A DNA stretch of 64,000 nucleotides from Patescibacteria group bacterium (lineage in GTDB: Bacteria; Patescibacteriota; Patescibacteriia; Magasanikbacterales; GWA2-37-8), in the NCBI GenBank assembly GCA_028688375.1, contig JAQTYG010000002.1, positions 3,841 to 67,840 of the forward strand, read 5' to 3'. The notes beneath the pieces were generated by a model. It saw nothing but the letters and a program-made list of their open reading frames with translations, was not told where the DNA came from and made no database searches. Below are positions 4,533 to 34,197 of this stretch, piece after piece (within the stretch, counting starts at the first letter, position 1; every line of letters starts with the position of its first letter). The translations under genes and the position numbers were made by a program.

Positions 4533-4822
4533 ATTGGGCACCTCCTTTCAACCACGCTGAGAAGCGTGGCCTAAAGATGATTTTTTCTTACTCGCGATCG
4601 CGAGAAAAAATTTTTTTAAAGAGTTTATGCCAACAAGCATTGAGCACAAACTGCTTTCGACCTACCTATATTATAAAATGTTTCTTCGGAAAATGGAATA
4701 GCTAAGGGCAAAGTTATGCACAGTTATGCACAGGTGGTCAAAATATATAAATTTTACCATTTAAGTTGACGAACGCCGATTAATTTGTTTAAATACACGC
4801 ATATTAATGGTAATTTTAATAT

Positions 4823-5665
4823 ATGATTAATGAGAACCACGAGTCAGATGTCAGAAGAAACAAAGAGGTGGTGTTCGCTACCGAAGACGCCGATATCAAA
4901 GAGCTGTTGTCGCTCGGCGCGGCCGAGTATTTTAAGCGAGAATTTCCGGACCTTAAGCATGCTTTTTCCGAACAGCAAGCATGCGTTTGTTGCATGGATG
5001 AGGGTACGGCGCACAAAGACATAAACGGCGAATGGAAGTTGGCTTTGGCCGGTTCCGGCATTTTATACCCGGCGGCCAATGAGGCGGAGCGCCTGGAGAA
5101 GGTGGCAAAGATATTAATTGAACGCGGGGTGACGGACATCACCAGCCATAGCGGTTGCGGAGCGGCCGGTTTGGCCTATCGTCGTGATTTTCCTGACGCC
5201 GATACCCATGAGAATTTGGCGGAAAAAATTGAAGCGTACACCCGGGCGTGGGCGGATAAATTAGCGGAGAAGATTCATGATCTCGGACACGCGGCTGAAC
5301 GCACGCATATTATCGCCGAGGACATGGAACGACCGGTAGAGTTTCATAACGCGCGAGTGGTGTATTTTGACGGCGTCGGCGGATTTAATCCGAACAAAGA
5401 GATCGGCTTGCCGATGGGGTTTGTGATTGAACGCGCCTATCTGCCGGCGGAGTATACGGCCGAGGAATTAAAAGTGGCGGTGGACATCGCTTTCGGCCAT
5501 CACGGTTTTGGAAAATTATTTTATGCGGAATCGCCGTTTGTAATAATTGCGTTGGCGAAGAACGACGAACAGCTGAATAATTTAAAAGATGAAATTTCTT
5601 CCGCCTTAGCCGATAACGAAAATTTTGTTGGCGGGAAAATAAAAATTGATGGATTGATAGTGTAA
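4823..5665 (+). CDS. hypothetical protein
   Basis: 280-aa ORF with promoter-like TTGACG-17-TTAAAT upstream and hairpin terminator downstream; no recognisable family. Confidence 0.5.
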   Translation: MINENHESDVRRNKEVVFATEDADIKELLSLGAAEYFKREFPDLKHAFSEQQACVCCMDEGTAHKDINGEWKLALAGSGILYPAANEAERLEKVAKILIERGVTDITSHSGCGAAGLAYRRDFPDADTHENLAEKIEAYTRAWADKLAEKIHDLGHAAERTHIIAEDMERPVEFHNARVVYFDGVGGFNPNKEIGLPMGFVIERAYLPAEYTAEELKVAVDIAFGHHGFGKLFYAESPFVIIALAKNDEQLNNLKDEISSALADNENFVGGKIKIDGLIV

Positions 5666-6298: not shown

Positions 6299-7063
6299 TT
6301 ACAACGGATCGCCAGGATTTCTTTTTATAATATTAATCGTCGGTCCTTTCCAGCCTTTAGCTTGCACCCCCATTTCCGCCGCCTCGGTCTGCGCCTCCTG
6401 TTTGCTCATACCTTCGCCGGTGGCTACCAGTTCTTTGCCGATATACACGCCGACTTTAAATGTTTTGGCGTGGTCCGGGCCTTCTTCGCTCATCACTTTG
6501 TAAGTCGGAGTCACCCCGAGCAATTCCTGCGCCGATTCTTGAAATCGGCTCTTGGCATCCAAATATAATCCATTTTCTAAAATATACGGCAATTTCGGCA
6601 ACACCCATTCGGCAATAAATTTCTTCGCCGCCTCATAACCGCCGTCCAAATAAATCGCTCCGGTGACGGATTCCATGGTGTTGGCCATGATATAATCGCG
6701 GGCTTTGGTGCCGGCGTCTTTGGCTTCGCCGTGGCTCAAAAACAAATACGGTTCCATGCCGATTTCATAGGCGATGCTGGCTAGGGTTTTAGCATTCACC
6801 AGCGCCGCGCGCCAGTTGGTCAATTCGCCTTCGGGGTTGCCGTATTCATTAAAAAGAAATTCAGTCACTACCAATTCCACTACCGCGTCGCCCAAAAATT
6901 CCAGACGTTCGTTATGTCCCAGCGGAAAATCATGATGTTCATTTAAATAGGAGCGATGAACAAACGCTTGAATCAACAATTCCGGATTATTAAAAGTAAT
7001 GCCGATTTTTTTCTGCAAGGCATCAAAATCTTTTTCAATAACTTCCGGTCTGTCTGTGATCAT
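6299..7063 (-). CDS. rnc: ribonuclease III
   Basis: RNase III signature [11 protein letters not shown]-terminal dsRBD-like region. Confidence 0.9.
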
Positions 7064-7895: not shown

Positions 7896-7924
7896 TTGAC
7901 AAAAAGGTAAAAGTGTGCTATTAT
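7896..7924 (+). promoter_or_regulatory. sigma70-type promoter (TTGACA-17-TATTAT, extended -10 TG)
   Basis: ttgacaaaaaggtaaaagtgtgctattat; near-identical copy at 17287-17315. Confidence 0.6.
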
Positions 7925-8170
7925 ATTCAGTTAACAATTCAGACCGCCTGTTTCTGGAGAGAGTCGGGCGGACAAAAATGGCTTTAATTAGCCAAAGTTA
8001 TTGAAAAACTTCTCGTTTTACGGGGGTTTTCGCACCTTAAAATGGTTTTAGCGCTAAATAAAGGGTTGTCGTGTAGAGATAGTATCTGATTGATCTGTCT
8101 ATAGAAAAATAAATTAACACCAACCTTTTATTGAGCGCTAAACCCCCAACCAACCACCAAGGAGGAATCC

Positions 8171-8602
8171 ATGGCAAACGAGGATACCAACAAGTTCGCG
8201 TGCGTGGCTTGCGGTCGCCCCATCAACTCCGACGCGGCGAAGATCGCGGCGCGAATCCCGGCGCGCGACGTCATCGTCGCGAAGCTGGGGAGGGCCGACC
8301 TCACGGTCGCGGACCTCGGCAAGTTCGTCGTGTGCGGGGGCTGCGGCGTCATCGCCGACCGCAAGGGGGCCAAGACGGCCGCCTTCACGGCCGCGCTCGC
8401 CGCCGTCCGCATGGACGAGGAGGAGCGACGAGCCCTCGCGGCGGCGAGGCAGGAGGCGCAGGAGGCGGTGAAGTCGAGGATCGGCGACCTCTTCGGAGTC
8501 TCTATCGAGGAGACCGAGGAGGCCACGGTCACGACGATCACGCCGACGGCCGCGAGAAAGGTCAAGGAAGGGGGGCGGAAGAGGGTCCGCAAGGCCTCGT
8601 AG
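8171..8602 (+). CDS. GC-rich (about 68%) ORFan, putative zinc-ribbon protein
   Basis: strong SD ccaaggaggaatccATG; two CxxC pairs (CVAC, CGGC); Ala/Arg/Glu-rich; GC content far above flanking genes. Confidence 0.5.
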   Translation: MANEDTNKFACVACGRPINSDAAKIAARIPARDVIVAKLGRADLTVADLGKFVVCGGCGVIADRKGAKTAAFTAALAAVRMDEEERRALAAARQEAQEAVKSRIGDLFGVSIEETEEATVTTITPTAARKVKEGGRKRVRKAS

Positions 8603-9307
8603 GCCACCGCCGCAACTGTGTGAGTCGTTCTTTTTCTAGAAAGAGAGGTCTGAATGCACTGGCCCGCGCTGTAGGTAACAGATAAGCGAGTGCCGGCATG
8701 GCCCCAACGGATCCGTCATCCGTCCGGTAAAATGACGAAGGCGACGCCGAGCGCATCAGTAACTCGGCACCCCAATTGCGTTTCTGAAGCGAATCGTTTC
8801 GGAGACACAACAGCGGTTCACAGCGCGAACAAAGGAGGTTCAATTTGAGCTGATGAGAAAGCGACGCGCAGCAAAAAAAGCGCGATGGCAACAATCCAAA
8901 TTCTCACCTATCAGGTGAACCAAGGAGGGGAAACCTCCCCGGAAGCCGAACCTAAGCAAATTCGGCAGTTCGTTTTCGTCGCCCATCATCCGCGGCGCTA
9001 GTGAGGGGGTCCTGTGCGACCTCCATGCCTCGCCGAAGCTACGGCTTGCGGCTGAACAGGCAGTGCGCGGCGCGCGGATCTGGGGTGCGCCGACGGCGGG
9101 TGGACATCGGTTGTTCTCCCGCCCTCAACAATCACGGAAGTGAAGAAAGGAGAGGTGGACCGGATGAATGCATTCGGGTTTACCTAGAGTGGCATGGGCC
9201 ACGCCACCGGCCAAAAACCGGGATGCGCTGCGAGGTCGTCTCGTCTGACCCGCCCGGCGCGCGGCGAACTAACTAAATGCTCTTTCGAGGTAGTCGTTCG
9301 AGTTCGA

Positions 9308-9350
9308 GGCCGGTCACAACTGCGTGACCGGCCGCTTTTATTTATTTGGC
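9308..9350 (+). terminator. intrinsic terminator closing GC-rich island
   Basis: perfect hairpin ggccggtcac-aactgc-gtgaccggcc followed by gcttttatttattt. Confidence 0.75.
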
Positions 9351-13521: not shown

Positions 13522-16014
13522 TTAAGCCATCGCCGCTTCCAGATTTTCAATCAGTGTGACGCTGGCGACTTTGTCGCCGTCTTCTTTGAAGCGCATCAAG
13601 CGGACGCCCTGAGTGGCACGGCCGGAGACAGATACAGTTTTCAACGGTAAGCGGATCACCTGCCCTTTGGCGGACATCAGTAACAAATCGTATTTATCTT
13701 CTTTGGCGCCGTCCACTAAGCGGGCGTGAATCAGGTTGCCGGTTTTTTGCGTGATTTCCGCCGTCTTAATACCACTGCCACCGCGTCCTTGCACTTTGTA
13801 TTGCGCCAGGGGCGTGCGCTTGCCCACGCCGTTCTCGCCCACAGTCAAAAGTTCTAAGCTTTTGTTATTCGGGTCGACAATATCCATGGAAATCACCTCG
13901 TCTTTATCGTGCAGGCGCATCCCGCGCACGCCGGCCGCGTTTCGGCCCATCGGGCGCACGTCGCCTTCTTCAAAACGAATCGCCTGCCCCTTTAAAGTGA
14001 TAATGCTAATCTCATCGTGCCCGGTGGACGGTTTGACCCATTCCATGGAATCTTCGCCCTTGAGTTTCAAAGCAATTAAACCGCTCCGGCGGACGTTGGT
14101 AAAATCTTCCAGCGCGGTTTTTTTGATTAAGCCTTTTTTCGTCACCATCACCAGGTATTTTATTTCCGCCAAATTGCCCATGGTGAGTAGCGCCGTCACG
14201 TTTTCATTCGGCGCCAGTTGGAGGAAGTTTACCAGGGCTTGGCCTTTGGCCGTCCGGCTGCCCTGCGGGATATCATAAGCGAACAGTTGGAAGACCCGCC
14301 CGCGATTGGTGAAAAATAGCACGTTGTCGTGAGTGTTGGTCATTTGTAATTGGTCCACCGACTCTTCTTCCTTGGTCGTCGTGCCGATCACGCCTTTGCC
14401 CCCGCGCGATTGCTGGCGGAACGTGTCCGGTGGCAAGCGCTTCACATAGCCGTCGGTGGTGGTCATAATCATTGTTGTTTCGTTGGGCACCAAATCTTCC
14501 ACCGTAAATTCTTTGATACCGTGCGCCACGATTTGCGTTCGACGGGGTTGGCCGAATTTGGTTTTAATTTCTTCGGTTTCAGTTTTTACGATATGCAAAA
14601 TTTTCGCCTCGGACGCGAGGATCGCTTCCAATTCTTTCATCAGGGCTTTCTTTTCCTTCAATTCGTCCTCGATTTTTTGCCGTTCCAGGTTGGCCAGTTG
14701 TTGTAATTTCATTTCCAAAATCGCCGTGGTCTGCCGGTCGGTGAATTTGAAATGCTTCATCAAATTGATTTTGGCCTCGTCTTTGTCTTTGGATGCGCGG
14801 ATGGTTTTAATCACTTGCTCAATTTTGTCCAAAGCCATTTTCAAGCCGTCCAAAATGTGGGCGCGGTCTTTGGCTTTGGCTAAATCAAACTCGGTGCGCC
14901 GGCGGATAATCACTTGGCGGTGTTTGATAAATTCTTCCAGGATGGTTTTTAGATTCAAAATGCGCGGTTGAATGCCGTCCACCAGCGCCAGCATGTTGGA
15001 GTGAAAGGTAGTCTGCAATTCGGTCATCTTGAACAGCTGGTTCATTATTTTTTTCGGATAAGAATCCTTTTTCAAATCAATCACCATGCGCACGCCGTCC
15101 TTGTTGGATTCGTCGCGCATATCGCGAATGCCCTCAATCTTTTTTTCCTGCACCAGTTCGGCGATTTTTTCCAAGAGCGTCGCCTTGTTCACCTGATAAG
15201 GAACTTCGGAAATAATAATTTGGAAGTGCCCGGCTTTGGCTTCAAGAATTTCCGCTTTGGCGCGGACGACGATCCCGCCCTTGCCGGTGGCATACATGGC
15301 GGCGATATCTTTTTTGTTATAGATAATTCCGCCGGTCGGGAAATCCGGGCCTTTTACAATCTCCGACAGGTCTTCCACCGTGGACTTTGGTTTTTCGATG
15401 AGTAGCGCCACCCCGTCGCAAAGTTCGGTTAGGTTGTGCGGGGGGATGGAAGTGGACATGCCGACGGCGATGCCCATAGTGCCGTTCAATAGCAAGTTCG
15501 GCACTTTGGAGGGCAGGACGGCCGGTTCCTTGTGCGACCCGTCGTAGGTCGGAATAAAATTAACGGTATCTTTTTCAATATCCACCAGCATTTCTTCAGC
15601 CAGCGCGGCTAGACGAGCTTCAGTGTAGCGCATGGCGGCGGCGCTGTCGCCATCCATACTGCCGAAGTTGCCTTGGCCGTCCACGAAGACTTGGCGCATG
15701 GAAAAATCCTGGGCCATGCGGACCATGGAATCATAAATGGCGGCATCGCCGTGCGGGTGGTATTTGGCCATCACCTCGCCGACCACGTGCGCGGATTTGC
15801 GGTATTTGGCCGTGTGTTTCAGACCGACATCCCACATGGCGTACATAATGCGCCGGTGCACCGGTTTGAAGCCGTCGCGTACATCAGGCAGGGCGCGCGA
15901 AACTATCACGCTCATGGCGTATTCCAAATATGATTGTTTTACTTCTTCGGCAATCGGCGCGGCAATCAGTTTGCCGACGTTTTCCGTTCCGGGCAATGAC
16001 ATTTTATCTTGCAT
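13522..16014 (-). CDS. gyrA: DNA gyrase subunit A
   Basis: 830 aa, GyrA N-terminal catalytic region with AAMRYTEARL and C-terminal beta-pinwheel repeats. Confidence 0.95.
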   Translation of the reverse strand: MQDKMSLPGTENVGKLIAAPIAEEVKQSYLEYAMSVIVSRALPDVRDGFKPVHRRIMYAMWDVGLKHTAKYRKSAHVVGEVMAKYHPHGDAAIYDSMVRMAQDFSMRQVFVDGQGNFGSMDGDSAAAMRYTEARLAALAEEMLVDIEKDTVNFIPTYDGSHKEPAVLPSKVPNLLLNGTMGIAVGMSTSIPPHNLTELCDGVALLIEKPKSTVEDLSEIVKGPDFPTGGIIYNKKDIAAMYATGKGGIVVRAKAEILEAKAGHFQIIISEVPYQVNKATLLEKIAELVQEKKIEGIRDMRDESNKDGVRMVIDLKKDSYPKKIMNQLFKMTELQTTFHSNMLALVDGIQPRILNLKTILEEFIKHRQVIIRRRTEFDLAKAKDRAHILDGLKMALDKIEQVIKTIRASKDKDEAKINLMKHFKFTDRQTTAILEMKLQQLANLERQKIEDELKEKKALMKELEAILASEAKILHIVKTETEEIKTKFGQPRRTQIVAHGIKEFTVEDLVPNETTMIMTTTDGYVKRLPPDTFRQQSRGGKGVIGTTTKEEESVDQLQMTNTHDNVLFFTNRGRVFQLFAYDIPQGSRTAKGQALVNFLQLAPNENVTALLTMGNLAEIKYLVMVTKKGLIKKTALEDFTNVRRSGLIALKLKGEDSMEWVKPSTGHDEISIITLKGQAIRFEEGDVRPMGRNAAGVRGMRLHDKDEVISMDIVDPNNKSLELLTVGENGVGKRTPLAQYKVQGRGGSGIKTAEITQKTGNLIHARLVDGAKEDKYDLLLMSAKGQVIRLPLKTVSVSGRATQGVRLMRFKEDGDKVASVTLIENLEAAMA

Positions 16015-16035
16015 ATCAAATTTTTTTCAAAATTG

Positions 16036-16380
16036 TTAATTGGTGGAAGTGGCGGTGGCAGCGGCAGTTTTTTCGCTACTGCTGGCGGACAGCTGTTCCG
16101 CCAGTTTGGCCATTTTATCTTTCGCTTCTTTTTCAATGGCGCTTTTTTCCAGCGCCGTGTTTTTAGTCAAGGCCGTCGCCGCCTGCCAGTCATCTTTTAA
16201 GCCATCCAGCATTTGTTTTTCCGCGCTTTGCTTAAAGCTGAATACGGCTAACTGATTTTTGAAAGAAATAATCCAAAAAGAGGCTAATAACATCGCAACG
16301 ATGCCGACGGCGATCCACAAAATACGACGTTTACGCACGACAACCTCGATGTGTTTGTTGGTTTGTTCTCCTTCAGCCAT
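16036..16380 (-). CDS. membrane-anchored hypothetical protein
   Basis: 114 aa, single TM, coiled-coil-like Ala/Lys/Glu C-terminus. Confidence 0.4.
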   Translation of the reverse strand: MAEGEQTNKHIEVVVRKRRILWIAVGIVAMLLASFWIISFKNQLAVFSFKQSAEKQMLDGLKDDWQAATALTKNTALEKSAIEKEAKDKMAKLAEQLSASSSEKTAAATATSTN

Positions 16381-17160: not shown

Positions 17161-17286
17161 CGATTTTTTATCATAAAACAACGACTATATTTTATCACTA
17201 TTTTACAGTGTTTTCAAGTCCAAAAAGGGGATAGTTTGGGGAAAATGGGGATATTCTTTTTCGCTAATATTAGCCAAGTTAAGGTA

Positions 17287-17315
17287 TTGACAAAAAGGCA
17301 AAAATGTGCTATACT
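17287..17315 (+). promoter_or_regulatory. sigma70 promoter, near-duplicate of 7896-7924
   Basis: ttgacaaaaaggcaaaaatgtgctatact. Confidence 0.6.
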
Positions 17316-17410
17316 ATATTATTCTTTTACAAACTCCAGTCCCGCATGGTGCGGGACGGAAAACCCGGCCGCGGGGAACAGCGGCAGAAAGAAAACAGGA
17401 GGAAAGGTCC

Positions 17411-18136
17411 ATGACAAACCATGGCACGGTCCCCCAGAATCAGTTCGAAGAGTTCCTGGCCGCCCTCATCGTGGCTCTACCGCAGATGACGCCGGAGCAG
17501 ATGCAGAAGTTCATCCGGCTCTCGACCAAGACCAAGAGGAAGAAGCTCCGTGAGCTCTTCGGCACGACCGACACCGAGGTTTGGCGCGAGGAGTGGACGA
17601 AGTTCTACCTCGAGGTCTTCAACCTCGCGGTGGACCTGACGAACGTCGTCCTGCCCACCGAGGTGGAGGAGTTCGCCTGGCTGACGGTTCTGGCCAAGGA
17701 GCTCGGCGACACGCCGCTCAACACGGCCATGGTCGCTGCCAGGAAGCTCTTCAAGGGCAAGGTCTGGCAGTACTACGACGACCTGGACAAGGATGTCACC
17801 GTCAACGACCGCGACCTGAAGAACGGCTCCTACGCCATCCGCATCCGGGCCAGGGTGGAGGCCGACGAGGAGAACAAGGGCCTCTCGGCCAACCAGATCG
17901 CCGAGCGTAAGCTCGTGACGATGACGCTCCTGGAGCGCATCGTGCTGGAGCTGTTCTACTTCTGGAAGACCGGGAAGCACCTGGACATCCAGAACGTGAC
18001 GCTCTGCAGCGGCTCGCGCAGCTCGGATGGCCGCGTCCCGCGCTGCGACTTGTTTGGCGCTGGCCACTTCTTCGTCGACGACTGCCGCCCCGGCTGCGCC
18101 CGCGTCTACTTGCGGGCTCGTGTCGCAGTTTTGTAA
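17411..18136 (+). CDS. DGR target protein (GC-rich, about 64% GC), variable region at C-terminus
   Basis: SD aggaggaaagg then ATG at 17411; last about 42 codons form the VR copy of the TR/VR pair. Confidence 0.6.
   Translation: MTNHGTVPQNQFEEFLAALIVALPQMTPEQMQKFIRLSTKTKRKKLRELFGTTDTEVWREEWTKFYLEVFNLAVDLTNVVLPTEVEEFAWLTVLAKELGDTPLNTAMVAARKLFKGKVWQYYDDLDKDVTVNDRDLKNGSYAIRIRARVEADEENKGLSANQIAERKLVTMTLLERIVLELFYFWKTGKHLDIQNVTLCSGSRSSDGRVPRCDLFGAGHFFVDDCRPGCARVYLRARVAVL
18008..18131 (+). repeat. DGR variable repeat (VR)
   Basis: about 124-bp imperfect direct repeat of 18405-18528; differences concentrated where the other copy has adenine. Confidence 0.7.
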
Positions 18137-18169
18137 CTCGTTCCTTTAACTCTTATCTCACCGGTTCGT

Positions 18170-18215
18170 TCTCTCGCCCGTTTGTGTGTCTTGCACAGAC
18201 GGGCGTTTTCTTTTA
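18170..18215 (+). terminator. hairpin/terminator downstream of VR
   Basis: gcccgtttgtgtgtcttgcacagacgggc followed by gttttctttt. Confidence 0.55.
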
Positions 18216-18404
18216 AAATACTTTTGGCTAATACAACCAATCTCACGCGATGAGGTAATGGTTTGCCACAAATTGAAACTGCTTAATCGATTTTAGAGAG
18301 TATTCGTGAAATGTCGCGATGGCTCCAAACAACGCCTGCTTCGCGGGTCAACGCAGATAATTTTGTTAAAGATTATCGGTGATTTTTGATGAAATCGGTT
18401 AATA

Positions 18405-18528
18405 AGCGGCTCGCGCAACTCGGATGGCGACGTCCCGCGCTGCGACTTGGGTGGCGATGGCCACTTCCACGTCTACGGCTGCAGCCCCGACAACGCCAAC
18501 GACAACTTGCGGGCTCGTGTCGAAGTTT
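18405..18528 (+). repeat. DGR template repeat (TR)
   Basis: adenine-rich copy (AAC codons gac aac gcc aac gac aac in target frame); followed by hairpin aaaaaggagcttg-cgt-caagctcctttt. Confidence 0.7.
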
Positions 18529-18544
18529 CAAAAAGGAGCTTGCG

Positions 18545-18826
18545 TCAAGCTCCTTTTGTTTCCAAGTATCTTATCCAGCCGCTTGCCATTTTGGAAATTT
18601 CTACCAACTGGTTTTCAATATCCAGATATTTATTCGTGTTGATTATATCCAGTTCATTTTCCAGCCGAATCAGCCGCTTTAATATTTCTATTTCAATTTT
18701 TATTTTTCGCAAAATCGGAATTTTTGTCGCGCCGCCGAGCAGGGCGGCTTCAATGGAAAAGCCGAGAATGTCCAGGCCAAACTGTTCTATTTTCAAATGC
18801 AATCCGTGTCTGTCTTTTTTCGGCAC
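18545..18826 (-). CDS. Avd-like four-helix-bundle protein (accessory variability determinant / 23S rRNA IVS-protein family), opposite strand
   Basis: C-terminal RLENELDIINTNKYLDIENQLVEISKMASGWIRYL matches the NELETQL...KMLNGLIRSL signature; only 93 aa. Confidence 0.45.
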   Translation of the reverse strand: MPKKDRHGLHLKIEQFGLDILGFSIEAALLGGATKIPILRKIKIEIEILKRLIRLENELDIINTNKYLDIENQLVEISKMASGWIRYLETKGA

Positions 18827-18878
18827 GTTTTTGCCGAGGACATAAATATTCCTGTATAACTCCGTTATCTTATGAACA

Positions 18879-19898
18879 ATGGGGATAGAAATTGCGTCGG
18901 GGGGGGGGTTGCTTGATTGTATCGGCCATAATTTTTTTGATAAAATTATTTCTTTTGGTAATTTATTTCGTGCCTGGCGCGAATTTAAACGCGGGAAGAC
19001 GGGTAAAAACGACGTCAGAAAATTTTATTATTCATTGGAAGATAATTTATTTGAGTTGCGACGTGATTTATTAGAGCACCGCTACCAACCGGACAAGTAT
19101 GGCTTTTTCTATGTCCGCGACCCTAAATTGCGGCCGATTCACAAGGCCTCGGTCCGCGACCGGGTTTTGTTTCAAGCCGTGTTCCGTTTATTGTATCATA
19201 TTTTTGACCGGCATTTTATTTTTGATTCATATTCTTGCCGATTCGGCAAAGGCACGCATGCCGGCGTGTGGCGTTTGGAGCAATTCGTCCGACGGGCGAG
19301 CGCGAATTATTCAAGGCCGGTATTTGCCCTAAAGTGCGATGTGCAAAAATTCTTTTATAGCATTGACCATGATATTTTATTTGATTTGTTAAGGCGAAAG
19401 GTTGGCGACCCCAACACGCTATGGTTGATTGACAAAATAATAGACAGTTTTGAAATTGAACCGGGCAAGGGTCTGCCTCTCGGCAACGTAACCAGCCAGT
19501 TGTTTGCTAATATTTATTTGAATGAATTGGATCAATGGGTGAAACATGTTTTGCGGCGAAAATATTATTTGCGGTATTGCGATGATTTTGTGATTTTGGG
19601 GGATAGTGTCGCTGATTTACGAGCGTTGATTGAACCGGTTAATGATTTTTTAAAAGAAAAATTAAAATTGAACTTGCATCCGCGGAAAGTGGAAATCAGA
19701 AAATTATCGCAGGGGATTGATTTTCTGGGATATGTTGTTTTGTCCCGTCATATTGTACTGCGAACGAAAACAAAAAAGAGAATGTTTAGAAAGGTGGCAA
19801 ATTGTCCGTCAAGCCAGTCGTTGCAGTCGTATTTGGGAATGTTGAAACACGGCAATAATTTCAATCTGTATAATAAGATAAAGCGTTTATTTGGTTAA
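18879..19898 (+). CDS. DGR-type reverse transcriptase
   Basis: RT motif C RYCDDFVILG (YxDD) and DGR-diagnostic LGNVTSQLFANIYLNELD; 339 aa. Confidence 0.85.
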   Translation: MGIEIASGGGLLDCIGHNFFDKIISFGNLFRAWREFKRGKTGKNDVRKFYYSLEDNLFELRRDLLEHRYQPDKYGFFYVRDPKLRPIHKASVRDRVLFQAVFRLLYHIFDRHFIFDSYSCRFGKGTHAGVWRLEQFVRRASANYSRPVFALKCDVQKFFYSIDHDILFDLLRRKVGDPNTLWLIDKIIDSFEIEPGKGLPLGNVTSQLFANIYLNELDQWVKHVLRRKYYLRYCDDFVILGDSVADLRALIEPVNDFLKEKLKLNLHPRKVEIRKLSQGIDFLGYVVLSRHIVLRTKTKKRMFRKVANCPSSQSLQSYLGMLKHGNNFNLYNKIKRLFG

Positions 19899-27332: not shown

Positions 27333-29672
27333 TTGCATATGCGCGAAAATTTTGGCGCGATATCTAGCGGAAGAGAAATGTTTTTCGCACGAAAAGCCGA
27401 GCATGACAGCGTGAAAGAAACGGAGAGAATAAAAGAAATAGTATTGGACTATTGTTCTGACACAGGTATTTTGCGAGAAGAGAAAGGCCGGCGTATTTGG
27501 GACATCGCGGCCTTCAAGGATATTGATTTTAGGCATGCTGGTGCGAAAGAAGAAGTGCCGGTCAATAAACATGATTTCTTCCGGGCACTATGCACAGAGT
27601 CGGGCGTTTCTTTGGCGGATTATCAGTCGGCCGAAAAGAATGAGAAATTGAAAGATCGGCCGATTTTTTATTATCCCAGCAGTATCGACGATGCGATGTC
27701 GCCAAAGAAAATAGCGGCGAACGAGAGTTATATTGGTTATTGGGATTTAGGAACGGTCGTCAAGGATTGGTCCGTTCCGGTGGAACTTCCGTCAGGAGAA
27801 AATGTCGGACTAAATGAGTTGTTTATAACCAAAATGATTTTTGGCAAATTACACGGGCGCCGTGATGAAAAGGGCAATCTAATAGTAGATGACCCGGAAA
27901 CTAGCGAACCGGTGAAGTTTACTGCAAAAATATTTGACAGGAACTTTGGCGGCGTAGGGAAAAGAGGAGAAGGAGGAAATACCAGCTTTTCAACTCCAAT
28001 CGGATATTTGCAGAAAAATGCTCCACATATAATGGAAAGTGGCCTGTTGTTGTCGAGCGACTTTCGTTCATTAAGTGAGAAAAGCGGTAATATCTATCGG
28101 CATCGTTATTCGGTTGCGGCCAACGGCATCGCCTATATCGGCGGCGCAAAATATAGTCTTGGCGCAGATTTCGACAGTCGCAGACAACCTGAAAAACGAG
28201 GCGCTTATTTTGTTGTCGAGCTTGGGAAAGGTCTAGCGGGTATTATTGAAAAGAGTAGGGGAGGGTATGAATCCGTAACCCATGTATTTAAATTGAAAAA
28301 CGAAGAAGAAATCGAAAAAATTCGTGCCAACAGTGGCGAGAAGAAAAAACGTGGTGACGTGGTTTTTAAAAAAAATGACATAGAAATTTTGCCATATGGG
28401 AAGGCCGATTCGAATCGTCGTTTTAGCGGCGAATCAGGAAAGGAATATAGCAAACGCATGCGTTTGCTGGAGAACTGTGAGAGTACGGAAAAAATAGTCA
28501 ATGATATCTCTCTTAATACCGGCATCAGCGCGCATCGCGACTTGTCATGGCACGAACAAGAATGGCTGGCCGCTTCCGCCGGAAATATTGAAGGCATGAG
28601 CGGTGAAATCATAGCGCAGGCCAAGAAATTTGGCATTGATTTTCTGAGGTCTTTTTTATCGTGCGAATTTGGTATGGATTCAGGCAGAGCGATTATTGAT
28701 ATCGCCAAAAAGATTCCACCGGAAGTGTCAAAGAAATTATTTTACAAATATGGCGAATTTGTAAACGCGGCTGAAGAGGCAGCAGAAGATCTGGAAAATC
28801 AGTATGGAGTGGCGCTGACGGAAGTACAAAAAAATAGGATAATGGAAAAAATGTTGCGCCGCGGTCGTGACCTGTTGCTTAATTACGCCTCGAGAGCCGA
28901 AGCGGGAACACATGGACAAACTGCACAAGCAGAGGCGTTGCAAATGCTCAATGACCTGGAAAGAGTTCGGTCGGATATGGTATTATTCTCTGCCGTATTT
29001 AAGGAAGCCAATATTCCGTTAGAACAAATGAAAGATACGGAAGTCTCGTCTGTGAACGCGCGGTACATGAATAGGCCGGATAAAAAGCGAATGATGGAAT
29101 TAGCGGAAATGAATTATGGCAAAAGCCGAGTCGGTCAAGAAATCGTAAAGCCGTCGCTCGCCAAGGCGATGGAAGACCGAACCAATACATTCTATCTGCT
29201 TAAAAAAGACGACGAAGTAATAGGCGGATTTCGCATTCAAGACGCAAAGGATAAATATTATTTTGGTTCATTCAACATGGACCCGAATGCCAAGGCGAGC
29301 GGCCTAGGCAATGCCATGCTGGAAAAAGTTATTGCGGATTTGTCGCGAAAAAAACCGGTGGAAGCCGTCGCAGAAGCGGAAAAACCGGTCATTTCTTATT
29401 ATGTAAACAAATTGGGTTTCAGAATAGCTGAATTTTTACCGGATATGGCCGGCACAGGAGTGGACGGATTTAAAATAGTAAAGGACGGACAAAAAATTGA
29501 AGAGATTGAATCAAAAAAATATACGGATAAAAATAAGTTTATCCGCGACGTGCAGAAAAATATCGCCAACGGCGGGATTATCGTCGGTTATCGATATGAT
29601 GAGAAAGCCAAAGTATACGAAGTGAGTTATGGCAGAGTAAAAGAGCCGGTCCAAAAGCGCATGGCAGCCTAA
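27333..29672 (+). CDS. large hypothetical protein with C-terminal GNAT-like acetyltransferase domain
   Basis: track ORF 27240 start lies in GC-rich hairpins; likely start MRENFG at 27333; C-terminal FRIQDA...GLGNAMLEKVIADL...YYVNKLGFRIAEF resembles GNAT motifs A/B. Confidence 0.45.
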   Translation: MHMRENFGAISSGREMFFARKAEHDSVKETERIKEIVLDYCSDTGILREEKGRRIWDIAAFKDIDFRHAGAKEEVPVNKHDFFRALCTESGVSLADYQSAEKNEKLKDRPIFYYPSSIDDAMSPKKIAANESYIGYWDLGTVVKDWSVPVELPSGENVGLNELFITKMIFGKLHGRRDEKGNLIVDDPETSEPVKFTAKIFDRNFGGVGKRGEGGNTSFSTPIGYLQKNAPHIMESGLLLSSDFRSLSEKSGNIYRHRYSVAANGIAYIGGAKYSLGADFDSRRQPEKRGAYFVVELGKGLAGIIEKSRGGYESVTHVFKLKNEEEIEKIRANSGEKKKRGDVVFKKNDIEILPYGKADSNRRFSGESGKEYSKRMRLLENCESTEKIVNDISLNTGISAHRDLSWHEQEWLAASAGNIEGMSGEIIAQAKKFGIDFLRSFLSCEFGMDSGRAIIDIAKKIPPEVSKKLFYKYGEFVNAAEEAAEDLENQYGVALTEVQKNRIMEKMLRRGRDLLLNYASRAEAGTHGQTAQAEALQMLNDLERVRSDMVLFSAVFKEANIPLEQMKDTEVSSVNARYMNRPDKKRMMELAEMNYGKSRVGQEIVKPSLAKAMEDRTNTFYLLKKDDEVIGGFRIQDAKDKYYFGSFNMDPNAKASGLGNAMLEKVIADLSRKKPVEAVAEAEKPVISYYVNKLGFRIAEFLPDMAGTGVDGFKIVKDGQKIEEIESKKYTDKNKFIRDVQKNIANGGIIVGYRYDEKAKVYEVSYGRVKEPVQKRMAA

Positions 29673-30475
29673 GTTGTTGCGCTCATATCATACATACTTT
29701 TCGGTTTCAGTTCGTTCGGAAATTTCGTTGTTGCCCACAAATACTCAAATAAACTGCGAAACATTTCATAAATAATTTTATCTTCGATTATCACCCCGAT
29801 GAGGGATTTACTGGATAGAGTGGTAAAAGAAATTTTGCCGGCGTATATTTGCAGAAGAGTGGAAGAAAAACTTATCGGGGCGGCGGTCAAAAATTTAAAC
29901 TTGGTCAGCTCGGAATCATAGTCGGTAGTCATGTTGCGGTTAAAAGCGGAATCATTTGAAATGATCCGCTTTATTATTTTTTTTGCTTTTCTTTCTTTCA
30001 AATACAGATCGTTTAATTTGCTGAATTCATGAATAGTAAACTCAACGTCGCCCATGGTCAGAACCTCGCCTGTCTGCGCCAGAGTATCCCACCATACTTT
30101 TTTGATACCGTCTTCGCCTTCAAAAAACCGCACACCCGGCCGGCCGGCGGCGAGGTTGAAAGAGGAAAGGAGGTTGGGCAAAACGCCGTCAATGGCGTTT
30201 TTAGCCGAAAGAGCCGCCTGTTCGCGCTCTTCCACAAAGTCGCGCAGTTTATTGGGGTGGCTGGCAATAAAGCCGGCCACTTTGCCCTCTGGTTCGTTCT
30301 TTTGGACCAGCCCCTTGGCCTCCAAGTCGGCCAATACCTTGTATGCCAAACTACGCTTTAGGCCTGATTCAGCCGCTATTTGAGTGGCTTTTTGCTCGCC
30401 TTTTTGCAATAAAAGCTCATAGATTAGCGCTTCTTTGGCCGAAAGGCCGGTTTGAGTGAGAATGTTTTCGTACAT
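29669..30475 (-). CDS. TrmB-family transcriptional regulator
   Basis: N-terminal winged HTH LSAKEALIYELLLQKGEQKATQIAAESGLKRSLAYKVLADLEAKGLV; 268 aa. Confidence 0.6.
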   Translation of the reverse strand: MYENILTQTGLSAKEALIYELLLQKGEQKATQIAAESGLKRSLAYKVLADLEAKGLVQKNEPEGKVAGFIASHPNKLRDFVEEREQAALSAKNAIDGVLPNLLSSFNLAAGRPGVRFFEGEDGIKKVWWDTLAQTGEVLTMGDVEFTIHEFSKLNDLYLKERKAKKIIKRIISNDSAFNRNMTTDYDSELTKFKFLTAAPISFSSTLLQIYAGKISFTTLSSKSLIGVIIEDKIIYEMFRSLFEYLWATTKFPNELKPKSMYDMSATT

Positions 30476-30639: not shown

Positions 30640-30668
30640 TTGACATTTCTATCTAGATATGGTATACT
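30640..30668 (+). promoter_or_regulatory. consensus-like sigma70 promoter (TTGACA-17-TATACT)
   Basis: ttgacatttctatctagatatggtatact. Confidence 0.55.
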
Positions 30669-30674
30669 GTATTC

Positions 30675-30990
30675 ATCAAGATCGAAAAAGGACTTGATGC
30701 AATCGCACCTTACAGAAGACGGCTGATGACAGAACTCGCTTCAGGAGAGAAGAAGCGGGCGGACACAAAGCCGGATTCACTAAACGGGACGGCGACGGTT
30801 TGCCTCTGGATAGCGGAGAGATATAGATAGAGGCGAAACGTTGCTCCCTGTGGAGTGAAAAAAGTTGTCATTCTGAGCGAAGCGAAGAATCTTTACAATA
30901 TATACGATTACCGTTGGAGAGAGCGGTGGCCAATTTACAAGAATAACAAGAGTTCTCTCCATTTAAAGAGAACTCTTTTTGTTTCGGTAA
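30675..30990 (+). ncRNA. candidate about 310-nt non-coding transcript (promoter to intrinsic terminator), function unknown
   Basis: no credible ORF; ends at hairpin aagagttctct-ccattta-aagagaactctt followed by tttgttt (30945-30990); contains one copy of the hairpin repeat family. Confidence 0.25.
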
Positions 30991-31554
30991 AGGAGAGACG
31001 GGAAAACGGCCTATCAATAACAAATAGTAATTGTGGCCAAACATTTACCCTCTCCTTTACCGGAGTAAAATCCGGTTCGTTCATTGGTTCTTTATAACAT
31101 GATTTCATATTGCCAGTTGAGACAGGAGAGAAATCTCCATCGGCGACATGAAATATGTCTGACTTACTTTTTACCTATTATATAGGTGGAAAGATCGGAT
31201 GCGGTTGATGGGCAGATTTGCGGGAACGCGAACTGTTCCACCGGCATCCGACTACTCGCTTGTCAGAGCGCGTAGTACCGAGTGCAACCCGTCCTAATAC
31301 TTCGCAAGAAGAATTGGGACAGGGACAATCGGCGCTACAGAGAGAGTGGCGACGAAGTACTTTGACAATTTACTTTCAGAAGACAGCAACAGGCCGCTGT
31401 GTCATCCTGAGCGGATCCGCCGACAAGCGGAGAAGTCGAAGGATCCCTTCGGCGCAATCGTTGTTGGTGTTTTTTGAAGGCGCCATCACAAGGTGTGATG
31501 GCGCAAAAACAACAAACCCCGGCGCCGTGGGTGAAACGGGCGAGTGAGGGAAAA

Positions 31555-32742
31555 ATGAAAGTTGTCGTGTGCGGACCGCCGCACAGCGGCAAGTCCGTGT
31601 TTCTCACGGGTCTCGTCGGTCAGTTGGACCGACGGGACTACTACCTTTTTCGGGCCTGCCCGGATGGCGAAGGGAGCTGGACGTATGCCCATGAGGGCAA
31701 CGCGGCTCTCCGCCGCAAGGGCGGGTTCACCACGGAATTCGTGGAGTGGTGCGTCCGCACTCTCCACAACAACAACATGGCTCCCTGTGTCCTGGTGGAT
31801 GTGGGGGGACGAATGACGGCCGAGAACCGGCGGATCATGGCGGAGTGCGACTTCGCTATCATCCTCGCCGGCGATCCGGCCGCCATCGGCGAGTGGCGGA
31901 ACTTCTGCTCCGAGTGTGGCTTGGCAGTAATCGCCGAGCTGCATTCGGACTACCGCGGCCGAAAGGACGTGGTCGAATGTGAGAGTCCGGTGGTGCGCGG
32001 CAGCGTGCATCACCTCGAACGGGGGGAAGACGTCACGAGTCGGCCCGCGATAGAAGCGGTGGGTCGCCTCATTAACCGGCTGCTCGACGAGCAGCGCAGG
32101 GAGAGGGAGAAAAAAATGGACAATATCGTGAACGCCATCACCGTCCTGATCGCCGAGCTGGCCGTGGCCCTCGGCAAGCAGAAGGTCAAGAAGACCTTGC
32201 CGAACGGCAAGGTCATCGAGACCATCGAATGGCTGGGCGAGGACCTCCGGTCCTTGTCCCGGCTCCTGCACTCCAAGTCGGCGGAGTACGCCGGCAAGGA
32301 CGTGAGGATCGACGGGGGAGCTCCGGGCTTCCTCGTTGCCGCCCTGGTGCACGAGTTGCACCCGGCGGACGTGTCGGTGAACTCACCGGATGGGTTCATT
32401 CCCATCCGGTGCCAGTCGCCCGAAGGCGACGGGCGCGGGGATAACCTGCGGTTCCGCGTCGAGGACCGGGGCGATTTCACCCTGGTTACCGCGGAGCAGC
32501 AGGATCCGTCCCGCCCCCTCGACCCGGCCAAGCTGGGCGAGATTGCCCCACCCGACGTGCCGATGGGGACCATCGTGGTCCTCAACGGCAGGATGCCCCA
32601 CTGGCTTTTGGCCAGTCTGGGCATGAGCTACCACGGCCGGACCAAGGCCGTGGCGGCCAACCAGCCGGGGCTGGGGGCGACGGTGTTCATGACCCACTCG
32701 GCTTCGGTCGAGTTGGGCTCGATGATCACGGTTGCGCTCTAG
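31555..32742 (+). CDS. GC-rich (about 66%) P-loop NTPase-domain protein, unknown family
   Basis: ATG after SD gagggaaaaATG; Walker A VVCGPPHSGKSV at residues 4-15; about 395 aa; preceded by about 350-nt structured leader. Confidence 0.5.
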   Translation: MKVVVCGPPHSGKSVFLTGLVGQLDRRDYYLFRACPDGEGSWTYAHEGNAALRRKGGFTTEFVEWCVRTLHNNNMAPCVLVDVGGRMTAENRRIMAECDFAIILAGDPAAIGEWRNFCSECGLAVIAELHSDYRGRKDVVECESPVVRGSVHHLERGEDVTSRPAIEAVGRLINRLLDEQRREREKKMDNIVNAITVLIAELAVALGKQKVKKTLPNGKVIETIEWLGEDLRSLSRLLHSKSAEYAGKDVRIDGGAPGFLVAALVHELHPADVSVNSPDGFIPIRCQSPEGDGRGDNLRFRVEDRGDFTLVTAEQQDPSRPLDPAKLGEIAPPDVPMGTIVVLNGRMPHWLLASLGMSYHGRTKAVAANQPGLGATVFMTHSASVELGSMITVAL

Positions 32743-32966
32743 GCGATACGAAAAAAATCTCACACCCGTGAGTTGCGGCAAATCCTAACCGCGTAAAACG
32801 ACAGGTCGACTCGCATCCGTAACTGCGCGCCAGTCCGAGTAAGGCGTGAATCTCGGAAACACTCGGAGGCCGACATCGCACATGTCGGCCCTCCAATTAC
32901 CGCACCAAATGCTTTGGCGCGGTTGAGGAGAAAACAAACGGGTCAAAGTGACCCAAAGGAGAGGCA

Positions 32967-33773
32967 ATGGAAAACAATATCAACAGCGACACTACCACCA
33001 ACTCCGACAACGACCGCGACATCGTCGCGGAAGCCGCCGAGCGGTACGCCGAAGGGCGCCAGCAAGCCATCGAGGTCTGCCGCGTCGTGGCGGAGGCGGC
33101 GAGGGTCCGGCGCGTTAAGGATGACGTGCCGGAATGCGTCGCGGGCGCTGCCCGCGACTTCCTGGCGAAGGCGACGGCGCCGGCCCGACACGAGTCCCGT
33201 GTCGCGGCCACCGTCGCGTGCGCGCGCGCATGGATTCGCGCCTTCGGGCGCGAGTCCATTGAGGAGTACGAGGACATCTGCGTCCTCATTCTCCTCATCG
33301 CCGACCTGTTCGGGGTCGGCGGTCCGAACGGGTTGGGTGGCGCCACCAGGCGCCACCCGGCTTTCACCGCCCTTGGAAAGGGGCGGTGGCAGGCCAGTGA
33401 CGGCAGCGCCTACCGCGCCGCCGTCGTCGGCGCCGCGGCCGAGCTTTTCAACAAGCTCGGCTCCGTCGTCGTCGACGCCGAGGGGTCCATCAGGACCCAC
33501 TCGGCGGTGATCGACAGCGACTGGGCGGTGGAGGCCATCGGCGAGCCCGAGTTCGCCGAGGCGTTCTTGCGCCACCTCCTGCTCGTCCTCGCCGGTCCAG
33601 AGAAAATCTGGAGCGTGTTCGACACGGGCAACTGGTGGGGGATTGAGCTCCCCCAGGGCGAGGACCGGCGCACGGCCATCGCGGCCGTTTCCGCCTCATT
33701 CAACGACGCGCATCGCATGATGTGCGTCGGAAAGGAGGATGTTACCGTGCCGGCCGACGAGACCGGCTGGTAG
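32967..33773 (+). CDS. GC-rich (about 67%) hypothetical protein
   Basis: 268 aa, SD aaaggagaggcaATG, Ala/Arg/Glu-rich, no recognisable motif. Confidence 0.45.
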   Translation: MENNINSDTTTNSDNDRDIVAEAAERYAEGRQQAIEVCRVVAEAARVRRVKDDVPECVAGAARDFLAKATAPARHESRVAATVACARAWIRAFGRESIEEYEDICVLILLIADLFGVGGPNGLGGATRRHPAFTALGKGRWQASDGSAYRAAVVGAAAELFNKLGSVVVDAEGSIRTHSAVIDSDWAVEAIGEPEFAEAFLRHLLLVLAGPEKIWSVFDTGNWWGIELPQGEDRRTAIAAVSASFNDAHRMMCVGKEDVTVPADETGW

Positions 33774-33893
33774 ACAACACACGCGCACCGTAACTGTGCT
33801 AAACACAACCCGAGTTGAACGTTACGGGTTCAGCTTTATCACTCGGACGGGCGAATTGCACATTCGCCCCTCCAATTACCATAATATTATTCT

Positions 33894-34099
33894 GGATTCC
33901 CGCCTACGCGGGAATGACAAAATAAAACTATGGTTGAGGAGGAAAACCCGGAAGATTTCCATTCAAAGGAATCTCTCCTCCCGCGAAACGGGAATCGAAA
34001 GGGTTTAATCTGAAATTAAAAAACCCCGGCGTAAAGCCGAGGTTTTTTAATTTATTATTGCCGAAGGGATCCTTCCCCGCCCAAGGCGGGTCAGGATGA
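33894..34099. repeat. cluster of hairpin-repeat-family copies downstream of GC island
   Basis: ggattcccgcctacgcgggaatgacaa (33894-33920) and gccgaagggatccttccccgcccaaggcgggtcaggatgac (34059-34099), inverse orientation relative to 17053-17160 copies. Confidence 0.55.
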
Positions 34100-34197
34100 C
34101 CCCCCACCACTTTTAATTTCTAACACGCTAATAAATAAAGCCCTGTTATCTAACAGGGCTTTTTGTGAACTGAGCTTGTTGCAAAAGTGGTGGGGGG

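Follow-up and report, generated by a model that had tools for sequence, protein, structure and literature searches.

A 64,000-nt stretch of DNA from a Patescibacteria metagenome-assembled genome (MAG), called the window below, carries an array of two co-oriented GC-rich genes, each of which is followed on the + strand by a copy of the structured element that is the subject of this work. The genes lie behind a strong promoter and a leader, next to a divergent gene for a TrmB-family winged helix-turn-helix (wHTH) regulator (Table 1). An earlier sequence-only reading of this DNA took both genes for GC-rich ORFans. This is wrong for gene 1, which encodes an AAA ATPase fused to a Csx3 ring-nuclease domain (Pfam PF09620, E = 1.5e-15; PADLOC 'AAA-Csx3', E = 2.8e-56). 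Gene 2, called open reading frame 2 (ORF2) below, is identical to NCBI locus PHD72_01610 and has no recognised promoter of its own, the one weak 9/12 match being located inside copy 2 of the element, i.e. downstream of ORF2. Because the array is closed by an intrinsic terminator at 34013-34053, the elements must be read through. An independent Logan assembly (L060, a 3-kb contig present in SRR22315507) contains the identical cassette region contiguous with the host flank, and the window is therefore not a chimera.

The regulator gene is the constant left neighbour of the array across related loci (denoted by L numbers), with homologues flanking the arrays of L064, L065, L078, L125, L128, L129, L130 and L131. 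The promoter is found in the same position in L064, L065, L078, L125, L128, L129 and L130. The sequence between 30675 and 30985 is conserved in L129 and L130, with blocks that include GATGACAGARCTYGCTT..GGAGAGA..AAGCGGGYRGACACAAA. It has no match in Rfam and may represent an undescribed small RNA (sRNA) with the putative boundaries given in the table. Palindromes similar to the repetitive extragenic palindromic (REP) sequences of the candidate phyla radiation (CPR) flank and invade the cassette region at 30866-30890, 31398-31453, 33893-33918 and 34060-34110 (gtcattctgagcgaagcgaagaatc; gtcatcctgagcgg...gaaggatccc; attcccgcctacgcgggaatgac), and the two cassettes are bracketed by a 16-nt perfect inverted repeat (31438-31453 / 34060-34075).

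Table 1. Features of the array and of the two element copies (positions in the window)
Feature	Position	Strand	Remarks
TrmB-family wHTH regulator gene	29669-30475	-	Pfam PF01978, E = 4e-13; divergent from the array
Strong sigma-70-type promoter	30640-30668	+	TTGACA-17-TATACT, extended TG; 11/12 consensus; reads into the array
Conserved ~300-nt leader or sRNA-like transcript	30675-30985	+	Putative boundaries; ends in a terminator-like hairpin (30948-30977) with a T-run
Leader motif	31251-31324	+	Hairpin A 31251-31276; single-stranded GAGTGC 31280-31285; hairpin B 31288-31324
Gene 1, AAA ATPase-Csx3 fusion	31555-32742	+	64% GC
Element 1 (long form), upstream part	32751-32859	+	88% identical to L129; related motifs in L064 (GAGYTGCGGAACTAAA) and L125
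Hairpin GAGTTGCGG...CCGC	32770-32792	+	Within the upstream part of element 1
Hairpin with CCGTAACTG in its loop, then spacer	CCGTAACTG 32817-32825	+	Within the upstream part of element 1
Element 1, core	32860-32935	+	Box, hairpin 1, helix 2, A-rich tail AAAAC; repeat families D7, D10, D16
Element 1, box CACTCGGA	32860-32867	+	ACTCGGA from 32861
Element 1, hairpin 1	32868-32890	+	Stem GGCCGACAT 32868-32876; loop CGCAC 32877-32881; stem ATGTCGGCC 32882-32890
Element 1, CTCCAATTACC	32891-32901	+	Directly 3' of hairpin 1
Element 1, helix 2, outer stem	CTCC 32891-32894 / GGAG 32927-32930	+	Internal loop AATT / TGA
Element 1, helix 2, inner stem	ACCGC 32899-32903 / GCGGT 32919-32923	+	
5'-UTR module of gene 2	32936-32966	+	A-rich linker; small hairpin GGGTCAAAGTGACCC 32940-32954; Shine-Dalgarno sequence AAAGGAGAGG
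Gene 2 (ORF2), 268-aa protein	32967-33773	+	68% GC; no family assignment; absent from the L129 array
Element 2 (short form)	33788-33947	+	CCGTAACTG 33788-33796, box, hairpin 1, helix 2, tail GAAAAC
Element 2, box CACTCGGA	33840-33847	+	Then C; ACTCGGA from 33841
Element 2, hairpin 1	33849-33869	+	Stem GGGCGAAT 33849-33856; loop TGCAC; stem ATTCGCCC 33862-33869
Element 2, CTCCAATTACC	33870-33880	+	Directly 3' of hairpin 1
Element 2, helix 2, outer stem	CTCC 33870-33873 / GGAG 33938-33941	+	Internal loop AATT / TGA
Element 2, helix 2, inner stem	ACCATA 33878-33883 / TATGGT 33929-33934	+	
Canonical bidirectional intrinsic terminator	34013-34053	.	Closes the array; inverted repeat I10 flanked by A/T runs

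Architecture and conservation of the element

Each of the two hairpins that were noticed in the earlier reading forms the core of a two-part structured element, ~80-190 nt in length, which consists of a box, a hairpin with a variable stem and a UGCAC(A) loop (hairpin 1), an abutting helix (helix 2) and an A-rich tail. Both hairpins are present on the + strand within one base of where they had been placed: the start of ACTCGGA was given correctly for copy 1 and one base too far downstream (33842) for copy 2, and the spacing between the copies is 980 nt. The stems do differ and yet pair perfectly, as had been claimed, and ACTCGGA and the 3' flanks are indeed conserved. The conserved loop, given as GCACAT, has the invariant core GCACA inside UGCAC(A), and the conserved unit is much larger than the 41 nt first assigned to it. 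Hairpin 1 of copy 1 can also be written G-GCCGACAT / CGCAC / ATGTCGGC-C. Five of the seven inner base pairs differ between the copies, all of them compensated, and the flanks are identical.

The 11-mer CTCCAATTACC has no other exact match in the window. As its CTCC...ACC arms pair with the downstream ...GGAG arms, CTCCAATTACC is the 5' arm of helix 2. This arm is pyrimidine-rich and the 3' arm purine-rich; the latter contains GGTTGAGGAG (32921-32930 and 33932-33941), which extends as GGTTGAGGAG(A/G)AAA (repeat family D16). Between the window copies the inner stem of helix 2 covaries, and the outer stem and the AATT/TGA internal loop are conserved. A REP-like insert (~33893-33918) occupies the helix 2 loop of copy 2. 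Farther upstream, the box CCGTAACTG sits in both copies in the loop of a small covarying hairpin, and its part GTAACTG matches the + strand of the window only at 32819 and 33790. The 5'-UTR (5' untranslated region) module that follows element 1, an A-run, a small GNRA-like hairpin and AGAAAGGAGG, also precedes cassette genes in L125 and L064 (6730-6766, 13185-13219 and 14065-14099 in the latter); on the minus strand, this module has the score of an intrinsic terminator.

Both copies were also recovered as repeat families D7 and D10 in a repeat search of the window, and the predicted folds of the two regions are more stable than those of their dinucleotide shuffles (z = -3.6 and -4.3). The ~24 identical positions at fixed spacing are expected to recur ~5e-10 times in 128 kb of two-strand sequence (an arithmetic estimate), which excludes chance recurrence.

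Three further structural possibilities for the element were considered. An attC-like L''/L' pairing in copy 1 (CGCGCCA 32826-32832 / TGGCGCG 32915-32921) has no counterpart in copy 2 and is a coincidence. The CCAAUU/UGAGG internal loop does not have the consensus G-A pair of a kink-turn at position 1b-1n. A tRNA-like or RNase P-related role of the same loop was checked solely by a tRNA search, which gave no match at the elements.

The conservation of the element extends to other genomes. The MAFFT alignment of the window-type copies (A3) places hairpin 1 out of structural register between arrays, and the tests used were a nhmmer profile of the 5' half of the element, an arm-swap test and a pair count on five in-register copies. 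The profile finds array copies only, all on the + strand, in 949 kb that include 59 unrelated genome loci. Exchanging the arms of hairpin 1 weakens its energy from -15.7 kcal/mol (native) to -9.5 kcal/mol within an array and to -5.7 kcal/mol between arrays, and the outer arms of helix 2 go in the same way from -10.1 to -4.6 and -3.4 kcal/mol; judged by these swapped-arm energies, an element is closer to the others of its own array than to its orthologues elsewhere. In the five in-register copies of hairpin 1, all 35 cells pair and six of seven pairs change on both sides. Their covariation score is 1.24 as against 0.30 for shuffles, none of 500 shuffles reaching it, and slid controls pair at 23-37%; these figures illustrate the covariation and do not prove it, because the five copies were chosen for forming hairpins. 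The invariant GCACA is found in or at the loop of 10 hairpin 1 sequences from six arrays. Helix 2 behaves similarly: its outer stem is CUCC/GGAG in the window and UUCC/GGAA or UCCC/GGGA in L125 and L090, and the inner stems (ACCGC/GCGGU, ACCAUA/UAUGGU, AGC/GCU, GGAUUU/AAGUCC) are all different and all complementary. Pairing is thus kept through double-sided changes in orthologous and paralogous copies of related Patescibacteria, and the earlier proposal of a selected structure is supported. The loop and flanks remain ~88-91% identical between genomes in which host genes are ~70% identical and neutral sites are saturated.

Related arrays and the cassette boundary

Homologues of the Csx3-AAA and TrmB proteins lead to about ten contigs that share the layout of the window, a TrmB gene on the minus strand, a promoter and a run of co-oriented genes (L063, L064, L065, L078, L125, L128, L129, L130, L131/L132). 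Three pairs of contigs (L125/L126, L127/L128, L064/L094) are 100% identical, and therefore no micro-evolution can be read from them. The gene content of the arrays varies. Csx3-AAA is common, with a DEAD-box helicase as a recurrent companion of Csx3; L130 and L131 have no Csx3. The cassettes have a GC content of 51-68% in hosts of 34-46%.

Wherever intergenic regions were read, the array genes are followed by a hairpin, a longer helix abutting it (5' arm rich in pyrimidines, 3' arm rich in purines) and an A-rich stretch, except that two of the spacers (one in L078, one in L129) do not have one of the two helices. There is one element per gene, always in the gene sense, in L064, the window, L125, L063, L078, L128, L129 and L131. 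L064 has seven genes and seven elements, of the type CGGGCGA-loop-TCGCCCG followed by GATCACCTTG...CAAGGTGGTC; L125 has at least six elements close to the window type (GGAGGAG...CTCCTCC, then TTCCAAYT...TGAGGGAA); and L063, L065, L078, L128, L129 and L131 have variants of their own. Csx3 homologues outside these arrays, in other phyla (L066, L067), have ordinary terminators at the position of the element. Phage and plasmid collections gave no match to Csx3-AAA (searched as protein) or to the element region. The ORF2 homologues P0002 and P0005 lie in tightly packed phage-like contexts that do not contain the element, and therefore provide no evidence of cassette mobility.

The boundary of a cassette can be located by comparing the window with L129. 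The TrmB proteins of the two are 67% identical and the host DNA is ~70% identical; the split AAA and Csx3 proteins of L129 are only 42% and 33% identical to their window counterpart. Nevertheless, the 107 nt that follow the stop codon in L129 are 88% identical to 32751-32857, and at the end of its array the sequence from the hairpin loop through CCCTCCAATTACC and beyond shares 91% identity with 33855-33919. Among the arguments for covariation and conservation, this comparison is the strongest. L129 does not have ORF2, and its single terminal element is a hybrid of both window copies: the left side is that of copy 1 (the Csx3 3' UTR, CGGAGG) and the right side that of copy 2 (TGCAC in the loop, the core and, after it, A(C/T)AATATTATTCTGG...). 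On this comparison, 980 nt between equivalent points of the two window copies are either an insertion in the lineage of the window or a deletion in L129, and in whichever direction the change went, the breakpoints of the ORF2 indel lie inside the elements. This supports the suggestion in the sequence-only reading that the hairpins delimit gene cassettes. The hairpin stem of L129 (ACAAAGAT/ATCTTTGT) adds a third variant to those of the window, again compensated throughout, while the loop and the flanks have not changed. The single-stranded parts are therefore under sequence constraint, and the stem is under pairing constraint only.

A second sequence shared by several of the arrays is the leader motif. 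In the window, two covarying hairpins enclose GAGUGC(A), which has complements in both the box (G)CACUC and the loop UGCAC. Orthologous motifs of the form hairpin-(G/A)AGUGC-hairpin are found in L064 (~5360-5450), L065 (~6380-6450), L129, L130 and L131. Leader and box change in step: CCGAGUG faces CACUCGG in the window and in L129 (as GUACUCGG, 6 bp, in the latter), CCGAGUGC faces GCAUUCGG in L065 (with one G-U), AAAGAGUGC faces GCACUCUUU in L064, and AAGUGC faces GCACUU in L130 and L131. This parallel change is suggestive of pairing between the leader and the box.

Several other features of the related contigs and of the window may be recorded here. In L063 (2152-2214), a sequence similar to a type III hammerhead (CTGATGAG...CGAAA with stems; RF00008, 25.7 bits, below the gathering score of 48.5) lies downstream of hairpin 1 of the post-Csx3 element and is enclosed by the long-range pairing TTAGGAGA/TCTCCTAA. 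In L129 (225-1182, minus strand), AAA (189 aa) and Csx3 (98 aa) are separate genes, which are fused in the window and in most homologues. An IS200/RAYT-type (REP-associated tyrosine transposase) Y1 transposase gene lies directly beside the TrmB gene of the Moraniibacteriota array (L128 2-409, L127 870-1163), the Y1_Tnp Pfam match being 29.3 bits in L128 and only a faint precomputed one in L127. L078 contains a long perfect tandem (GGCTAAA)n at ~15900-16050, past the last + strand ORFs that follow Csx3 and upstream of two tRNA-like sequences. Within the window, a second locus (7897-9330) has a promoter of the same type (TTGACAAAAAGG...TGTGCTATTAT), a 66%-GC ORF (8173-8603) and a GC-rich noncoding stretch of ~700 nt, at the end of which lies a canonical terminator (~9300-9340); CCGCAACTGTG, directly after the stop codon of this ORF, resembles the CCGTAACTG box. 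A diversity-generating retroelement occupies 17286-19898, with a strong promoter, a GC-rich target gene (ATG at 17412, to 18136), a variable repeat (~18040-18110) at the 3' end of that gene, a near-identical template repeat (~18410-18480) and a reverse transcriptase (18879-19898; Pfam RVT_1, E = 2e-21). The two repeats differ mostly at A positions of the template. The ACTCGGA match at 18418 is inside the template repeat and is unrelated to the cassette element.

Possible roles of the element and comparison with known systems

Neither window copy matches a family of Rfam 15 (hammerhead, twister, pistol, hatchet and RAGATH motifs included), either at the gathering threshold or at E <= 10. In the related loci, Rfam finds rRNA, tRNA and the single sub-threshold hammerhead of L063 only, and the leader region is likewise without a match. 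Literature searches turned up no description of the element. A search for the exact pattern CTCGGA-N16-34-CCTCCAATTACC over 596 Gb, of the kind that the earlier reading had proposed, returned 59 matches as against ~330 expected by chance for 18 fixed bases (an arithmetic estimate), and on inspection the hairpin is formed only in L033; the pattern search says nothing on the distribution of the element. The L033 match, in a Chthoniobacterales MAG (4812-4888), is an inverted pair of hairpins CGGACGG...CCGTCCCTCCAAT(T/C)(A/C)ACC between convergent genes, with flanks that resemble the window element. Either a GC-rich phylum has here a related family of REP-like repeats, or the likeness is a coincidence. 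The lack of further copies and of conservation had been named as what would speak against a selected structure; the window does contain no further copies, but conservation in related genomes is clear. The element is a real, selected, array-specific structured element family that is absent from Rfam. It belongs to the structured repeats that delimit gene cassettes, and the family itself was previously uncatalogued.

By combining these observations, it is possible to propose a role for the element. In the reading that we favour, although we give it a little less than an even chance, the element would act in the polycistronic RNA as an intercistronic module for recognition, processing or stability, and the repeats would double as cassette breakpoints. 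Each upstream cistron would have its 3' end protected by the hairpins, cleavage or entry would take place in the A-rich single-stranded linker (32931-32939; 33942-33950), and the small hairpin with the Shine-Dalgarno sequence would form a protected 5' end for the next cistron. The invariance of the single-stranded motifs implies a conserved reader, and the box CACUC, the loop UGCACA and CYCCAAYU might be read by such a conserved trans factor, for which the complementary GAGUGCA motif between the two hairpins of the array's own leader RNA is a candidate. The presence of such a module behind every gene would also make it the site at which cassettes are gained and lost by recombination, as has been proposed for the promoter-early stem-loops (PeSLs) of phages. 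Action at the RNA level is favoured because the elements are in the gene sense and must be read through, because they sit between a stop codon and a standard unit of linker, 5' hairpin and Shine-Dalgarno sequence, because Csx3 genes outside these lineages end in plain terminators there, and because G-U pairs favour the sense strand overall (50 as against 26 on the opposite strand), though not in the window copies.

Several points weigh against this proposal. The G-U bias comes mainly from L064, L081 and L090, is reversed in both window copies and may partly reflect strand composition. Two abutting helices are in themselves not evidence, because both generic structure scans are unspecific: minimum free energy folds of this form give at least 180 and at least 160 matches in the window, and perfect hairpins with a downstream arm give 102 matches on the + strand and 88 on the - strand. 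The complementarity between leader and box comprises just 6-9 nt in a handful of arrays, L128 does not have the long leader, and the boxes of L125 differ. The sequences show that the structure is conserved and covaries, that the elements are restricted to arrays and oriented, and that they bound indels; action on RNA, processing and the pairing of the leader are all steps that we infer. Furthermore, a dedicated recombination site explains at least as naturally why the indel coincides exactly with elements and why the cassettes are heterogeneous in GC content.

Such a site is the basis of the main alternative, an integron-like system, which appears unlikely to us but is far from negligible. The element would be analogous to attC, folding from single-stranded DNA, and circular cassettes of an ORF and its element would be moved by a recombinase encoded elsewhere, with the promoter and leader in the role of Pc and attI. 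The junction of a circular cassette would then be …CTCCAATTACC joined to GCACCAAATGC… or CTCCAATTACC followed by GCACCAAATGCTTTGG…, and that of an empty site the left half of copy 1 joined to ATAATATTATTCTGG. The general plan fits well: co-oriented ORFs with no recognised promoters of their own and one 3' element each lie behind a single strong, Pc-type promoter, the content of the array at the same locus differs between related genomes, the cassettes form a GC mosaic with their hosts, and the ORF2 indel ends at equivalent points of two elements, leaving the hybrid in L129. The greater likeness of elements within an array is also found in sedentary chromosomal integrons (PMC5027507). The details fit less well. 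The window sequence CCGTAAC...GTTGAGG at the ends of the element faintly echoes RYYYAAC/GTTRRRY, but L125 has CTTGAGG or CCTGAGG at this position and L064 has GGTGGTC, which is not comparable, so that the AAC/GTT core is not conserved. The structure consists of two helices and not of one imperfect bottom-strand hairpin with extrahelical bases, and the wobble bias is towards the top strand. On both sides of the array, a part of the window ORFs was scanned for a tyrosine recombinase, and none of the proteins tested is one. The called genes of L063, L064, L130 and L131 include no integrase, and neither do the flanks of L065, L078 and L131 as far as these were seen or tested. The TrmB-like protein, considered as a hidden recombinase, has an N-terminal wHTH Pfam match only and no HKD-type motif by eye. 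The sole Xer-like tyrosine recombinase is in L125, 3.3 kb from the array, and L128 has the Y1 transposase. As attC clusters without an integrase (CALINs) are known, this absence is not decisive. Csx3 and the DEAD-box helicase recur jointly as in an ordinary operon, homologous recombination alone can yield an indel between 40-nt direct repeats, and the 5'-UTR module is left unexplained.

The hairpins might instead be factor-dependent or partial terminators, or insulators (attenuators), by which successive genes are expressed at different levels relative to one another, with no role in processing or recombination. This possibility, which we consider improbable, draws on the stable GC-rich hairpins directly after the stop codons, on the short U-runs that follow helix 2 in L064, and on the intrinsic terminators found at the same position after Csx3 genes in other phyla. 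Against it, the copies in the window, L063, L125 and L078 have no U-tract, in keeping with the earlier conclusion that the hairpins are not simple terminators: hairpin 1 is followed by CTCCAATTACC and helix 2 by an A-rich tail, both copies are missing from the output of the terminator scan, and canonical terminators do occur in the host at other places, among them the end of the array. Nor does termination need an invariant loop and flanks or a second helix. Least probable of all, and by our estimate very much so, is a selfish palindrome similar to REP sequences or to miniature inverted-repeat transposable elements, possibly mobilised by Y1/RAYT proteins, or imported with GC-rich foreign DNA, that has no function in the array. 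REP-like repeats are common in this genome, one of them inside copy 2, the Y1_Tnp gene adjoins TrmB in L128, and the L033 contig has its inverted pair of similar hairpins. However, the two copies in the window are both in the array, all copies are confined to arrays in a single orientation with one per gene, the profile of the 5' half matches nothing else on either strand of the 949 kb, and the elements are ~90% identical across genomes in which neutral divergence is saturated.

Patescibacteria (CPR) have tiny genomes, and how they acquire and express accessory or defence-type genes is poorly known. The locus resembles a dedicated, regulated platform with a TrmB regulator, a strong promoter, a leader RNA and a standardised unit of gene plus element; its content varies between relatives, while the noncoding module outlasts the neighbouring proteins in conservation. 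A bolder speculation, which we consider rather doubtful, is that Patescibacteria carry at this fixed TrmB-adjacent locus a gene-capture platform analogous to integrons, with a different site and enzyme and without IntI. The cassettes inserted and excised there would each combine an ORF with a folded site of two helices that has UGCACA as its loop and CYCCAAYU as its core, and the leader hairpin-GAGUGCA-hairpin would be an attI-like docking partner or a tracrRNA-like guide that pairs with every intercistronic unit. The clear predictions are processing sites, circular junctions and covariation of leader and box.

The element can be compared with several known systems. The attC sites of integrons have conserved RYYYAAC and GTTRRRY ends with an invariant AAC/GTT triplet at the crossover, fold on the bottom strand into one imperfect hairpin that has extrahelical bases, a central spacer left unpaired and a terminal structure that varies, and usually come with IntI (PMC5027507). 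Like attC, the present element is a structured, oriented site of ~60-190 nt located 3' of each promoterless ORF in a co-oriented array with one promoter, is variable in sequence with conserved pairing and greater likeness within an array, and contains the ends of cassette indels. Unlike attC, it has no conserved AAC/GTT core, two abutting helices, no adjacent IntI and a top-strand wobble bias; its long upstream module and its hairpin loop, both of them conserved, set it apart as well. If it were a recombination site, it would represent a second, independent invention of the integron principle.

PeSLs of T4-type phages combine a terminator-like stem-loop with an early promoter (PMC2839356, PMC4122927). 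They too are stem-loop repeats that separate accessory ORFs, in hyperplastic regions in their case, and that bound indels between close relatives, as the element does between L129 and the window, and they too would have a dual role in expression and modular shuffling. The element differs from them in its second long helix, in its bacterial chromosomal locus tied to a TrmB regulator, and in that its copies share no promoter consensus, copy 2 having one weak 9/12 promoter-like match and copy 1 none.

Intercistronic hairpins that serve in processing or stabilisation include the RNase III sites of the phage T7 early transcript and the REP stabilisers of E. coli operons. The element resembles them in being a stable sense-strand hairpin that separates the cistrons of an operon with read-through, and in that single-stranded A/U-rich sequence and a structured 5' end for the next cistron come after it; we know of no such hairpins with invariant loop and flank motifs across distant genomes, one-per-gene cassette logic or a complementary leader motif. 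With REP sequences, bacterial interspersed mosaic elements (BIMEs) and their RAYT (Y1) proteins it shares the GC-rich imperfect palindromes downstream of genes and the Y1_Tnp gene beside the L128 array, but REPs are dispersed genome-wide, often as inverted pairs, and these elements are array-restricted, of single orientation and one per gene. The leader motif alone invites comparison with the tracrRNA anti-repeat and the CRISPR repeat, since an array-adjacent sequence is complementary to a motif in every transcript unit; here the complementarity spans just 6-9 nt, each unit is a whole gene and not a spacer, and there is no Cas9 or type II context, so that the likeness is limited to complementarity. 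If the element acts as an RNA signal, it would be an intercistronic motif that is both new and widely conserved, and for which the leader offers a candidate complementary partner; on either reading it provides a sequence handle for finding such arrays.

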